Shown: positions 34,707-45,848 of the stretch, in pieces | Layout: every line of letters starts with the position of its first letter | How positions within the stretch are numbered: position 1 is the first letter of the stretch | Source: a candidate division GN15 bacterium | GTDB lineage: Bacteria > Zixibacteria > MSB-5A5 > GN15 > FEB-12 | Assembly: GCA_014727815.1 (NCBI GenBank) | Contig: WJMS01000015.1 | Location: forward strand, 1-52,076 | Direction of reading: 5' to 3' | DNA length: 52,076 nt | Translations under genes and position numbers: made by a program | Notes under the pieces: generated by a model | Seen by the model: the letters and a program-made list of their open reading frames with translations, nothing else | Told to the model about the DNA's origin: nothing | Databases searched by the model: none

Positions 34707-36137
34707 CTACAGGGTGAGGACCAATCGCCGGATCAGCAGCAGCAGCTGATCGGGATAGACCCCGAGGTAGATTGTCGCTGCGGCCAGCAGGCCGAGCAGC
34801 GTCGCTCCCGAGAGTGAGACTGTGGGCGTCGAGGCAGCAGGCGTGTCGCGACGGGCGTACATGACAGCCATGATACGGAAGTAGTAGTAGATGCCGATCA
34901 GGCTGGCGATTGCCAGCACCACTACCAGCACCCAGTGGGCGGCAGCAACACCGGCCAGGACCAGATAGAACTTGCCGACAAATCCGGCCGTGACGGGAAT
35001 CCCCGCCAGGGACAGAAGGAGTATGGTGAAGATGATCGCCAGTCGGGGGCGCTGCCAGAACAGGCCGCGGAAGTCTTCGAGAGACATCCGTTCCCTGCCT
35101 TCGGGTGAAATCAAGCTGATTATGCCGAATGAGCCCAGGACAGCCAGAGAGTAGACGATCAGGTAGTAGGCGACGGCTTCGAGGGCGCGATCTCCTCCGG
35201 CGATGAAGGCGACCAGCATGTAGCCGAGATGAGCGATCGAGGAATAAGCCAGGATGCGTTTGACGTTTTCCTGGATGAGCGCCAGGATGTTTCCGATCAG
35301 CATCGAGGCTATCGCGATCACGGCCAGGGCGATCATGACCGTGTCGAATTGATATCCATCGGTGACAAAGAAGTACCGCAGCAAGAGTGCGAACACGGCG
35401 CTTTTGGAGACACTGGCCACAAAGGCGGTGACGGGAGCCGGGGCGCCGGTGTAGACATCGGGTGTCCAGACATGGAACGGTACGATAGCGAGTTTGAAAC
35501 CGATGCCGACCAGCATAAGGGCGGTCGCGACCAGTACGATGGGGGTCGACAGATCTTCGGCGGCGGCGAGTGCATCGGCCAGCGGGCCAAACTGCATCGT
35601 CCCGAACTCCGCGTAGATCAGCGCCATGCCGAACAGCAGGAAAGCTGATGATGCAGCCGCGAGGATGAGATACTTCACCCCCGCTTCAAGGGCGGCAAGT
35701 TCCTCGGTCAGATAGGCAATCATGACATAGAGTGAGACCGAGAGAATCTCGAGACCGAGGAAGAATGTAACGAAATGACTGGCGGCGGTGAGGACCATCG
35801 AACCGAGCGTGGCCAGCAGCAGGACTATATAGAATTCCTCGCGCTGTTCGTTGCGGCGACGCAGGTAGGCGTAGCCGAGGACGGCGGTGACGATAGCGGC
35901 GGCGATGATCAGGCCCATGAAGAACTGCGCGAACCCATCCATCACCAGCAGCACGCCAACTGATTGCGGCAGCAGCGGGCCGACACCAATCACTGCGATG
36001 AAGGCAGCGATGAGACCGACTATGGTCAGTCCGAGAGCAACCGCATGACGGCGTGTGATGGCGGCCTGCAGCAGGACGACGATCGATGTTATAGCGACAA
36101 TGATGACCGGCCAGAGGGCCTGATATTCTATATCCAT
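34707..36137 (-). CDS. nuoN: NADH-quinone oxidoreductase subunit N
   Basis: FLGLEILS, EAGVKYLIL, GFKLAIVPFHVWTPDVY, KRILAYSSIAH, GFVGKF. Confidence 0.95.
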   Translation of the reverse strand: MDIEYQALWPVIIVAITSIVVLLQAAITRRHAVALGLTIVGLIAAFIAVIGVGPLLPQSVGVLLVMDGFAQFFMGLIIAAAIVTAVLGYAYLRRRNEQREEFYIVLLLATLGSMVLTAASHFVTFFLGLEILSVSLYVMIAYLTEELAALEAGVKYLILAAASSAFLLFGMALIYAEFGTMQFGPLADALAAAEDLSTPIVLVATALMLVGIGFKLAIVPFHVWTPDVYTGAPAPVTAFVASVSKSAVFALLLRYFFVTDGYQFDTVMIALAVIAIASMLIGNILALIQENVKRILAYSSIAHLGYMLVAFIAGGDRALEAVAYYLIVYSLAVLGSFGIISLISPEGRERMSLEDFRGLFWQRPRLAIIFTILLLSLAGIPVTAGFVGKFYLVLAGVAAAHWVLVVVLAIASLIGIYYYFRIMAVMYARRDTPAASTPTVSLSGATLLGLLAAATIYLGVYPDQLLLLIRRLVLTL

Positions 36138-36144
36138 GTCACTG

Positions 36145-36453
36145 CTACCCCTTCAAGAGACTGGCCAGATCGATATCGAGCGTCTGGAGGCGCTTGTAGA
36201 TTTGCAGAACGAGGGCCAGGCCGATAGCGACTTCAGCGGCTGCCATGGCGAGAATGAAAACGAACATGACCTGACCATCGGCCTGTCCCCACCGGGCGCC
36301 GGCGGCGACAAAGGCCAATCCGGCGGCGTTGAGCATGATTTCAAGGCTCATGAGGATGAAGATCACGTTGCGGCGGACGAGCAGCCCGATCACACCCAGG
36401 GAGAAGAGAATGCCGGCCAGCAGCAGTCCATGTTCGAGCGGAATGGCGGCCAT
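36145..36453 (-). CDS. nuoK: NADH-quinone oxidoreductase subunit K
   Basis: [26 protein letters not shown]. Confidence 0.96.
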
Positions 36454-36454
36454 A

Positions 36455-37027
36455 CTACGAGTCCTCCCCTACGGTGACGTTCGGCGACGATTCGGTGTCT
36501 GCAGCTTGGGTGGTCGTATCGGTTCCGTGCTCACGGCGTTCGCGGCGGCGCCCGAGATGGAAGGCGCCGACCAGACCGGCCAGCAGCAGCATGCCGGCAA
36601 GTTCCACGCCGAGTACATACGTGGTAAAAAGGCTGATACCTACTTCCCTGGGAGCGACGACAGTCGGCGAATAGACGGTAGCCAGGCCTTGGTTGATCAT
36701 GTAGACAAGTTCAATCAACAAGACCAGTGACAGAACAGCGGGCCCGATGTACATGCGGGGATTGAGCCACTGCCGCTCCTGCTGTGCCGATTCGGGACCG
36801 AGATTGAGCAGCATCATGACGAATACAAACAGCACCATGATGGCGCCGGCATAGATGATGATCTCGAGCACGGCGACAAACGGCGCGCCGAGACAGAAGA
36901 AGATGACGGCTACCGACAACAGCGATACGATCAGGTACAACAGGGCATGTACGGCCTGGGTGCGAGTGATGACCATGATCGTGGCGGCGATTGCGACTGC
37001 CGACGCTATGTAGAATGCGGTTACCAT
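36455..37027 (-). CDS. nuoJ: NADH-quinone oxidoreductase subunit J
   Basis: [32 protein letters not shown]. Confidence 0.95.
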
Positions 37028-37045
37028 GCCGTACGCATTAACTCC

Positions 37046-42990: not shown

Positions 42991-43020
42991 GTTCTTTTCA
43001 TCTCTATCCGTTCGTGTGCG

Positions 43021-44778
43021 TTACCGATCGACATCGGCAAGCACGAAATCTATACTCCCCAGTATCGCCAGCAGGTCGGCCACGGTGTGGCCGCGGCTGA
43101 TGGCCGGCACCATCTGAATGTGCGGAAACGAGGGCGCCCGGATGCGGGTGCGATATGACATGGTGCTGCCATCACTCACCAGATAGTAGCCGTTGTTGCC
43201 CTTCGACGCCTCGACCGCCGCAAACGCTTCGCCCGGCGGGATAACCGGCCCCCAGCTGACATTGAGGAAGTGTGTGATCAATGTCTCAATGTCATGCATG
43301 GTGCGGTCCTTGTTGGGCGGCGTGGTCAGTTTGTGCGATGATTTGTATGGTCCTGACGGCATGTTGTTCAGGCACTGTTCAATTATTCGCAGGCTCTGTC
43401 GCATTTCTTCGACCCGGACAATACCGCGATCGTAGCAGTCGCCGTTGTGGGCGATTGGGATGTCGAACTCGAATTGATCGTAGCCGGAGTACGGCCGTGT
43501 TTTGCGGAAGTCCCACTCGTAACCGGTGGCGCGCAAGCCGGGGCCGGTGACACCCCACTCGATCGCGGTGTCGGTGTCGTAGACGCCGATGCCTTTGGTG
43601 CGTCCCTTGAAGATGTGGTTTTTCATGACGAGGGAGTCGTATTCTTTCAAGCGGGCCGGCATGTAGTCCAGGAACTCCCGGACCAGCTTGTCCCAACCCT
43701 CAGGGAGATCATCGGCCACCCCACCGATACGAAACCAGTTGGGATGCATGCGGTCACCGCAGATGGCCTCGATGATCGTAAAGATGCGCTCGCGGTCGTT
43801 GAACATGTAGAAGACCGGTGACAGCGCGCCGACATCCTGGGCGAAGGTGCCGTACCAGACGAGATGACTGGCAATTCGGAAGAACTCGGCGAGCATGATG
43901 CGAATGACCTGCGCCCGCTCGGGGACGTCGATACCGGCGAGTTTCTCGACCGCCATGACGTAGGGGAAGTTGTTCATGACCCCGCCGAGGTAGTCGATGC
44001 GATCGGTGTACGGGATGTAGGAATGCCAGGACTGCCGCTCCCCCATCTTCTCGGCGCCGCGATGATGGAAGCCGATTTCGGGAACGGCGTCGACGATCTC
44101 TTCGCCATCGAGCTGCAGTATCACCCGCAGGACACCGTGCGTGCCGGGATGTTGGGGCCCGAGATTAAGAAAGATGAAATCGCTGTCTTCGCTTCGGCGC
44201 TTCATCCCCCAGTCCTCGGGGTTGAACTTGAATGCTTCCATCTCCCGGTCCTGGCGCTCATCGGGAAGTTCGAACGGCGGCATTTCGGTGGCACGGGCGG
44301 GGTGATCTTTGCGCAATGGGTAGCCTTCCCACGTGTGCGGCATGAGTATGCGCTGCAGGTGCGGGTGACCATCGAAGCGCACGCCAAACATATCGAAGAC
44401 CTCCCGTTCGTACCAGTCGGCGTTGGGGAATATTGTGCGTACGGTTGCGACGGTGGGGTCGGCTTCGGGCAAACCGACTTTCACCCGGATATCGTCGTTG
44501 CGGTCGAACGACAGCAAATGGTAGACGACCGAAAAGCGGTCGGTACCGGGTTGAACCGGGTGCTGGCGGGAGCCTTCGTCGATTGCGGTCAGGTCGTAGA
44601 GCATGCGATACGGCTGCTCGACTTCGGATTTCAAAAACGACAGTACCGGTTGCAGGGCCGAGCGGTCGATCCAGACGGTCGGGATCTGGTCGGTGGTCGG
44701 CTGCACCGAACGGAGATTGTCGCCGAACTTCTCGGTGAGCGTATCGACAATGGTGGCCGGGCGGGTATCGGTAGTCAT
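43021..44778 (-). CDS. nuoCD: NADH-quinone oxidoreductase fused subunit C/D
   Basis: [11 protein letters not shown]...PLRKD (C part) followed by [21 protein letters not shown] and DFVLADVDR (D part). Confidence 0.97.
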
Positions 44779-44790
44779 TCGTACGGTCCC

Positions 44791-45435
44791 CTACACACCA
44801 TCGGGGGTTCGCAGGTCACCGGTCTGGCGACGGCGTTCCTGTTTGAGATCACGCAGAGCGGGGCGCTGGGCTTTTTCCACACCGGAGGGACCGATCGCCC
44901 AGCTCAGGGGACGGCGTTCCCGCCCGGCCGCCTCACTCATGAGGACCAGGCCTTCCATAAATGTCTCGGGGCGCGGCGGACAGCCGGGGACATAGAGGTC
45001 GACCGGCATGAACTTGTCGACACCCTGGACGACGCTGTAGATGTCGTACATGCCGCCGGAGTTGGCGCACGAACCCATGGAGATGACCCAGCGGGGTTCC
45101 ATCATCTGGTCGTAGAGGCGGCGGATGATCGGCGCCATCTTGAGAAAGACGGTGCCGGCGATCACCATGACATCGGCCTCGCGCGGCGTGCCGCGAATGA
45201 CTTCGGCGCCAAAACGGGCAATATCGTGACGGCTGGTCAGGCTGGTAGCCATTTCGACATAGCAGCAGGAGAGACCGAAATTGAACGGCCAGAGCGAGTT
45301 TTTGCGTCCCCACGCAAGCAGGTCCTGCAGTCGGGCGAGCATGACGTTTTTCTGGACGGTCTTTTCAAAGGAGTCGGAGACCAGCTCGACAGTGTGTTTT
45401 TCGCCCTTCGCCGTGAATCGTTTGAAGCCGCGCAT
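44791..45435 (-). CDS. nuoB: NADH-quinone oxidoreductase subunit B
   Basis: [31 protein letters not shown] overlaps the nuoA TAA (TAATG). Confidence 0.96.
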
Positions 45436-45848
45436 TATCGTGATCCCCGTCTGGCCGGTTTGCGGAGAAAGTCGAGCGCGCCCATGCGCCATTCATAGAT
45501 CAAGCCGGCGGTCAGGATACCGGCAAATATGAGCATGGCCAGATAGCCCGGCCAGCCGAGGTCCTTGCCGGCGACGGCCCAGGCAAAGAGGAAGACGACT
45601 TCGAGATCGAAGATCACGAAAAGCATCGCGACCAGATAGAACTGTGCGGAGAAACGTACGCGTGCGCCGCCGGTCGAGGTGATCCCGGACTCGTAGGGAA
45701 GATTGGTTTCGCGGTCCTGGTGTCGCTGGCCGAGCAGCCAGGACAACAGGTACATGGCGCCGAGGATGACGAGAGCGCCGATGGTGTAGACGAGAAGGGG
45801 AAAGACGTCCGATGTCATAGGCGAGGTGGTAATTGGCGCGACCATCAT
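45435..45848 (-). CDS. nuoA: NADH-quinone oxidoreductase subunit A
   Basis: [28 protein letters not shown]; start could be 45818. Confidence 0.95.

Follow-up and report, generated by a model that had tools for sequence, protein, structure and literature searches.

An eleven-gene complex I operon without nuoL and nuoM in a Zixibacteria genome, probably encoding a short-arm enzyme

The stretch of DNA analysed here (the window, 52,076 nucleotides (nt) of contig WJMS01000015.1, assembly GCA_014727815.1) comes from a sediment bacterium of the Zixibacteria and carries on its minus strand a complex I operon from which nuoL and nuoM are missing. The host genome is designated G000 and the window contig C77; other G-numbers denote other genomes. 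Where the nearest homologues of a flanking SufBD gene (71-78% identity) carry a name, it is 'candidate division Zixibacteria'. The open reading frames (ORFs) of the window were scored against NCBIfam and Pfam models, and the operon comprises eleven uninterrupted genes in the order nuoA, B, CD, E, F, G, H, I, J, K and N (Table 1). The NADH module is present, with the models for NuoE, NuoF and NuoG all above cut-off, as is the quinone module, with fused NuoCD, NuoB and NuoI above theirs; the NuoD part reaches 569 bits against the NuoD model TIGR01962 (cut-off 459). The proximal membrane subunits are NuoA (PF00507), NuoH, NuoJ and NuoK. In total 12 of the 14 core subunit equivalents were identified, and instead of all three antiporter-like subunits of an Escherichia coli-type (E-type) operon NuoN stands alone.

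Table 1. Genes of the window operon, with the lengths of their counterparts in genome G131 (contig C3); aa, amino acids
Feature	Position	Strand	Length	Model support or note	Length in G131 (aa)
nuoA	45435..45848	-	137 aa	PF00507, 117.9 bits	137
nuoB	44791..45492	-	233 aa	NF005012, 239.7 bits (cut-off 116)	211
nuoCD, fused	43021..44778	-	585 aa	NF008728 NuoC/D, 1043 bits (cut-off 840)	585
nuoE	42523..42990	-	155 aa	NF005722, 196.5 bits (cut-off 141)	156
nuoF	41241..42530	-	429 aa	TIGR01959, 586.9 bits (cut-off 558.65)	427
nuoG, long form	38529..41234	-	901 aa	TIGR01973, 624.1 bits (cut-off 470)	910
nuoH	37588..38532	-	314 aa	NF004740, 499 bits (cut-off 399)	319
nuoI	37046..37576	-	176 aa	NF004536, 308.8 bits (cut-off 212)	171
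nuoJ	36455..37027	-	190 aa	NF005162, 238 bits (cut-off 157)	189
nuoK	36145..36453	-	102 aa	NF004319, 145.9 bits (cut-off 101)	104
nuoK-nuoN junction	36138..36144	-	7 nt	CAGTGAC on the coding strand	
nuoN, sole antiporter-like subunit of the operon	34707..36137	-	476 aa	TIGR01770, 389.2 bits (cut-off 332.6)	482

The terminal gene is nuoN and neither nuoL nor nuoM. It scores 149.6 bits against the NuoM model (cut-off 263.8) and 113.3 against the NuoL model (cut-off 407.5), and E. coli NuoN (3rko_N) matches it with an E-value of 7.7e-114. Its best equivalog model, NF004439, gives 461.8 bits, under the cut-off of 531. With NuoL and NuoM of the related genome G004 as queries no remnant of either gene was identified on the contig, the sole match being nuoN itself at 24% identity. 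The window contains no N and its G+C content is even (0.54-0.63); a scan for promoters and terminators gave counts not above those of shuffled sequence. The earlier note on this DNA, made from the letters alone, had described nuoA to nuoK followed directly by nuoN, a spacer of 7 bp, intact remaining subunits and no trace of L or M, and each of these points was borne out by the ORFs, the model scores and the search with the G004 proteins. The lack of L and M in an intact operon is confirmed as a real observation.

Two other identities were considered and rejected. An 11-subunit complex I-like enzyme would lack NuoE, NuoF and NuoG, all of which are present, and a group 4 [NiFe] hydrogenase would carry a hydrogenase large subunit in place of NuoD, which the profile scores do not support; no hydrogenase model is listed for the NuoD part in the profile scan.

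The order K-L-M-N is the norm in E. coli-type operons, as the earlier note had held, and relatives of the window operon agree with it. The only one of 40 relatives with an orthologue of the window NuoN (57% identity) is G004, from the same family and a different genus, where the operon is A-B-CD-E-F-G-H-I-J-K-L-M-N and the subunits are 57-85% identical to those of the window. In the flanks the nucleotide identity between the window and G004 is about 72%, a divergence at which saturation of synonymous sites is expected. The nearest NuoN in a collection of 5.8 billion proteins has 58% identity, besides one identical fragment of 269 aa. A survey of the Zixibacteria, based on loci around NuoN matches with a threshold for E-type NuoN of E 1e-110 or better, identified the type in 11 of 285 genomes. 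Apart from the window, eight of these loci have M before N, one is cut by a contig end and one, in G131, reads I-J-K-N. The six other full operons, from G004, G146, G148, G108, G099 and G070, are all K-L-M-N.

Wider surveys gave the same picture. A scan of species-representative genomes comprised 18 loci, with K-L-M-N in all 17 that have upstream context, and in a second phylum, surveyed around G285 (which carries locus L031), matches at E 1e-115 occurred in 3 of 301 genomes and gave two new loci, both with M ahead of N. Taken over other phyla, the E. coli-type operons with context are K-L-M-N in 19 cases out of 19. Around NuoN homologues in metagenomes 80 loci were collected, 72 of them with context: M lies upstream in 70, K in none, L in one (L105), and one is an orphan. 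A metagenome scan with the NuoN of G131 yielded no relative above 52% identity and no clade of K-N operons. Candidate NuoK-NuoN fusions, indicated by precomputed PF00420 matches on some NuoN homologues, were rejected, being C-terminal extensions with no N-terminal NuoK part. Locus L105 (Ga0207873_1010252, 169-4559) is not of the E type; it presents nuoJ, nuoK and nuoL and then an N-like gene with a NuoN-type N-terminus and no M between, on a contig that stops 170 nt past the N-like gene. It may be another variant in module number or a differing gene order.

The junction in the window is gene-precise. The stop codon of nuoK lies at 36145-36147 and the ATG of nuoN at 36135-36137, at a site occupied in relatives by about 3.4 kb of nuoL and nuoM. 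In the relatives bearing both genes, nuoL starts 0-4 nt after the nuoK stop and nuoN is preceded by a purine-rich stretch of its own; the deletion spans from about the nuoL start to just upstream of the nuoN ATG. The purine-rich end of nuoK, GAAGGGG, which in relatives lies ahead of the nuoL start, now stands about 10 nt ahead of the nuoN ATG and would serve as ribosome-binding site of nuoL in the relatives and of nuoN in the window. Gene boundaries are respected on both sides by this deletion and by the one in G131, whose ends also fall within a few nucleotides of the nuoK stop and the nuoN start.

An assembly artefact, or a minority variant caught in the assembly of a genome that is truly K-L-M-N, is highly improbable. 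The host genome is a metagenome-assembled genome of 364 contigs (92.6% complete, 4% contamination), which is in favour of an artefact, as is the coverage by public contigs. One search identified seven public DNA runs containing 6-31% of the sampled window words, with no RNA run among the listed public runs matching the window, and contigs of four public runs over 33500-38600, 2-5x deep and fragmentary, leave 36118-36223 unbridged. On the other side, the junction lies inside a 52-kb contig that is free of N, the sequence of stop, 7 nt and ATG is tidy, relatives have no long repeat common to their K/L and M/N junctions that could mislead an assembler, E-type L or M occurs on no other contig of the host genome, and the identical architecture is found in an unrelated and better assembly, G131. 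Misassembly of the junction is therefore unlikely.

Genome G131 belongs to another family of the Zixibacteria and is 97% complete in 60 contigs. Its operon, locus L070 on the 248-kb contig C3, comprises the same eleven genes as the window, all intact (Table 1), with the nuoK stop, a 19-nt spacer unrelated to that of the window and the nuoN ATG. In a maximum-likelihood tree of concatenated NuoA to NuoK, G131 forms the sister group of G108 and G070, both LM-bearing, with ultrafast bootstrap support of 100, and the window operon is placed elsewhere. A tree constrained to unite the window and G131 is worse by 96.5 log-likelihood units, and the approximately unbiased test rejects it (p-AU 0.0003). 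From this topology and its test it follows that nuoL and nuoM were lost twice, independently in the two lineages, as judged from the sequences. The earlier note had proposed looking for nuoK-nuoN adjacency in other genomes and had offered a natural short-arm complex I as one reading; G131 is the one such case found, and an independent nuoA-K-N operon lends that reading strong added support. Downstream of the G131 operon, on the same strand, lie proline dehydrogenase and SdhC-, SdhA- and SdhB-like genes (L070 3274-7860, -), a respiratory neighbourhood that contrasts with the stress-type neighbours of the window operon.

Both genomes have other complex I operons. Exactly seven PF00361 genes were identified in the host genome: the window nuoN and two L-M-N sets inside other operons. 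The first set belongs to a complete 14-subunit complex I operon on contig C43, with its own L, M and N. The second completes an 11-subunit operon made up of contig C351 (nuoA, B, C, D, H, I, J and K, without E, F and G) and contig C132 (L, M and N). The starts of C351 and C132 overlap by about 127 nt, exactly at the nuoK/nuoL boundary of that operon, which suggests a branch in the assembly graph there. The count in G131 is the same, seven PF00361 genes in two L-M-N sets (contigs C2 and C18) and the lone N.

These sets raise the question of a hybrid enzyme, in which the short operon would give A to K and N and a paralogous operon would lend NuoL and NuoM. Besides the two further L-M-N sets in each K-N genome, the retention in NuoN of the central-axis residues that would link to NuoM is in its favour. 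No spare or clade-matched L or M was found in the assembled host genome with the G004 queries, however: the best matches are L and M of C43 at 43-45% identity, compared with 57-85% for orthologues, so the suggestion of the earlier note that matching genes might be encoded elsewhere was not upheld. Overall the identity between the paralogous L and M and those of the E type is 36-45%, and the paralogues lie within complete operons with their own N, to which the window NuoN is about 31-34% identical. A hybrid would also offer no reason for the double loss of both genes, and it is considered quite improbable.

The residues of NuoN were compared in columns over 25 sequences, E. coli positions in NuoN (relative to 3rko_N) and in the G004 NuoM being taken by eye from alignments. 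In E. coli numbering, both K-N proteins retain E133, K158, Y159, K217, H224, K247, S301, S302 and K395; the residue list of PMC13073174 consists of seven of the nine. The central-axis residues E133, K217, K247 and K395 are all kept in the window, and the claim of the earlier note that NuoN retains its conserved Glu and Lys residues stands. With a conserved column defined as at least 90% agreement among the other NuoN sequences, the window protein departs from three such columns and that of G131 from six, within a range of 0-14 over the 25 sequences. Rates were compared over eight operons with the topology fixed, the terminal branch being expressed as a share of the tree length of each gene. 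This share is 0.132 for NuoN of the window (other window genes 0.052-0.167) and 0.187 for NuoN of G131 (other genes 0.060-0.178), that is, no acceleration in the former and at most a modest one in the latter. Contigs of near-identical strains from other samples differ from the window nuoN at ten listed sites, nine synonymous and one non-synonymous; the neutral expectation is about 70% non-synonymous (P <=2e-4).

One shared change is conspicuous: in the column that corresponds to T244 of E. coli, which precedes the central K247 of transmembrane helix (TM) 8 by three residues, 22 of 23 LM-bearing NuoN proteins have Thr and both K-N lineages have Ser (residue 242 of the window NuoN). The change may be convergent; it is a conservative one and concerns two lineages only. 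In the NuoM of G004 (L028 12927-14453) the junction His and the uptake Lys are kept and Ile is found where E. coli has Asp258; following the reasoning of the Hirst-lab preprint 10.64898/2026.10.08.757549, this NuoM might be silent.

The reading that best accommodates these data is that the operon encodes a functional short-arm complex I with lowered or no antiporter-type pumping, which on the gene evidence is somewhat favoured. An independent second loss, together with the intact and conserved state of the remaining genes, makes it most likely that the short form is assembled and used. A precise deletion took out the distal pump module, nuoL and nuoM, and set nuoN directly behind nuoK. The resulting enzyme would retain the whole arm for NADH oxidation and quinone reduction (B, CD, E, F, G and I) and a membrane arm of the proximal A, H, J and K with NuoN as the single antiporter-like subunit, the lateral helix of NuoL being gone. 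It would oxidise NADH and reduce menaquinone, moving fewer protons than the parent enzyme, and since fewer protons would be moved, turnover could be maintained against a high proton-motive force. The short enzyme would work alongside the two full-length complex I isoenzymes of the cell. Its assembly, quinone type, lowered stoichiometry and physiological role are all predicted.

Menaquinone is the probable acceptor, as MenA is above cut-off in the five genomes G000, G131, G004, G108 and G070 and ubiquinone hydroxylases are above cut-off in none of the five; MqnA and MqnD were likewise identified in none of them. According to 10.64898/2026.10.08.757549 the voltage from NADH to menaquinone is about 0.26 V, as against 0.39 V to ubiquinone, and the lower voltage would favour fewer protons per NADH. 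A precedent is the Yarrowia lipolytica subcomplex without ND4 and ND5, for which PMC3160329 reports that half of the pumping is kept, in agreement with the 'about half stoichiometry' of the earlier note. Molecular dynamics described in 10.64898/2026.10.02.756245 suggests that a hydrated path opens in an ND2 exposed to lipid. The yield of the short enzyme would be about half by the Yarrowia precedent and none via the antiporter-like subunits under the newest models. A stable complex I that still pumps with NuoN as its sole antiporter-like subunit is possible but doubtful.

Several observations weigh against a functional short enzyme or against its pumping, the unbridged junction in the public contigs among them. 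Only two cases of a K-N operon were identified, and the operon type itself is patchy in the phylum. The entire E-type nuo operon is missing from G001 (78% complete) and G002 (99%), both of the same genus as the window, and in G002 the homologues of window 20272-21960, 30734-33156 and 49780-50313 adjoin one another; these adjacent flanks indicate that the lineage also sheds the operon entirely. The nuo operon of G004 is directly followed by the same suf genes as that of the window, from which the site seems ancestral and the operon in the course of being lost in the genus of the window bacterium. Measures of conservation, rate and polymorphism cannot date the deletion, so that they show constraint on NuoN and not constraint afterwards; the signs of purifying selection may predate the deletions. 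The K-N proteins, as far as their residues tell, do not look converted into a terminal subunit of the NuoL kind: the ND2-type triad is kept (K293-T237-Y229 in the window, Lys-Gly-Tyr in G131), and Phe follows the TM12 Lys in both where the G004 NuoL has Asp. E. coli complex I without ND5 and ND4 is reported in 10.64898/2026.10.02.756245 to be unstable and to have no quinone reductase activity. The Hirst-lab preprint 10.64898/2026.10.08.757549 describes ND2 uptake as inactive in Paracoccus and E. coli, limits activity in the two-proton E. coli enzyme to ND5 and places the single output there too; under this model a K-N enzyme could not pump via its antiporter-like subunits.

Many of these points would also fit a recent, non-adaptive deletion in a redundant operon on its way out, with the complex inactivated and the other genes not yet decayed. 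The absence of E-type nuoN from G001 and G002, the scarcity of the operon type, the instability of the truncated E. coli enzyme, a NuoN without changes fitting a terminal position and the redundancy given by two further complex I operons are all in keeping with it, and the rate and polymorphism data are compatible. Such decay, however, needs two independent lineages caught just after the same gene-precise deletion with the other eleven genes intact. No frameshift, internal stop or further internal gene loss was seen in the covered parts of the ten Zixibacteria operons with context, conserved NuoN columns show no excess change, NuoN has no clear increase in rate, and the polymorphism of nuoN is nine synonymous sites to one non-synonymous. 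Decay is considered unlikely, and the functional short-arm enzyme remains the preferred reading.

The use under stress conditions suggested in the earlier note is conjectural: the surroundings of the window operon are stress-type genes, but those of the G131 operon are proline dehydrogenase and succinate dehydrogenase genes. Window 33.2-49.7 kb has no counterpart in G002 and comprises, besides nuo, a Cu/Zn superoxide dismutase, an S30AE-cold-shock fusion, a CBS protein, a PAS-LuxR regulator and BrkB. Window 22000-30700 is also absent in G002 and contains a P-type ATPase, a Rieske-flavin reductase, an SDR, an arginase-family protein and DJ-1/PfpI. The fusion (33900-34529, -) is a protein of 209 aa with a ribosome-hibernation domain (Ribosomal_S30AE) at residues 24-125 and a cold-shock domain (CSD) at 138-200. 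Strain variants in its frame are synonymous in five cases of seven, and in the superoxide dismutase ORF, whose upstream part overlaps it, four of five in the overlap are non-synonymous, a pattern from which the dismutase probably starts later than 34231.

No description of such a K-N operon was found in full-text searches of the literature that covered selected passages, although survey supplements (PMC12361115, PMC4453560) might list 'partial' clusters. The entry and exit sites of the protons pumped by complex I are currently contested. Two 2026 preprints (10.64898/2026.10.02.756245 and 10.64898/2026.10.08.757549) cast doubt on pumping by NuoN alone, and the former raises the question of how pumping persists in the Yarrowia subcomplex, which has neither ND4 nor ND5. 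A naturally encoded bacterial complex I that ends at NuoN and has evolved twice would be a native variant missing from this debate, and its eleven-gene operon might be expressible in E. coli. Should the K-N enzyme be stable and pump, NuoN (ND2) could take up and release protons as terminal subunit, in contradiction to models with NuoL/ND5 as sole output and an inactive ND2, and single-output models would need revision. A stable, pumping K-N enzyme would further show that evolution tunes the protons moved per electron through the loss of entire modules, on two independent occasions in Zixibacteria that use menaquinone. Should it be active and not pump, it would represent an uncoupled complex I of a new kind, in which the proposed trend towards lower stoichiometry with low-potential quinones reaches its end. 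The short enzyme would also add a third, low-gear isoenzyme to the respiratory repertoire of this phylum.

Among known systems, group 4 [NiFe] hydrogenases (Ech, formate hydrogenlyase) also have a complex I-like membrane arm with one antiporter-like subunit, but their catalytic subunit is a hydrogenase and an NADH module is absent; the window operon differs in that its NuoCD, NuoE, NuoF and NuoG score as Nuo equivalogs. The closest likeness is to complex I of the E. coli type (3rko, 7nyr, 7z7s), which shares the fused CD, the long NuoG, the order A-B-CD-E-F-G-H-I-J-K and NuoN, whereas the window lacks NuoM and also NuoL, the bearer of the lateral helix and the proposed single proton output. 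The Yarrowia nb8m-deletion subcomplex (PMC3160329) likewise ends at ND2/NuoN and is reported active with half pumping, but it is an engineered mitochondrial assembly defect, while the K-N form is encoded in a bacterial operon, has arisen twice and is known from genes. Enzymes with silenced modules, the two-proton E. coli complex and the Mycobacterium smegmatis enzyme whose ND4 lacks the uptake triad, share the menaquinone context and a yield lowered through the modular arm (10.64898/2026.10.08.757549). They keep the modules and silence the uptake pathways, whereas the window operon is physically without ND5 and ND4; the same text calls ND5 and its uptake triad universally conserved. Finally, the 2M complex I of Nitrospirales (PMC12342949) is another natural variation in the number of antiporter-like modules, but in the opposite direction: an extra NuoM enlarges it by one module, and a role in reverse electron transport has been proposed for it.

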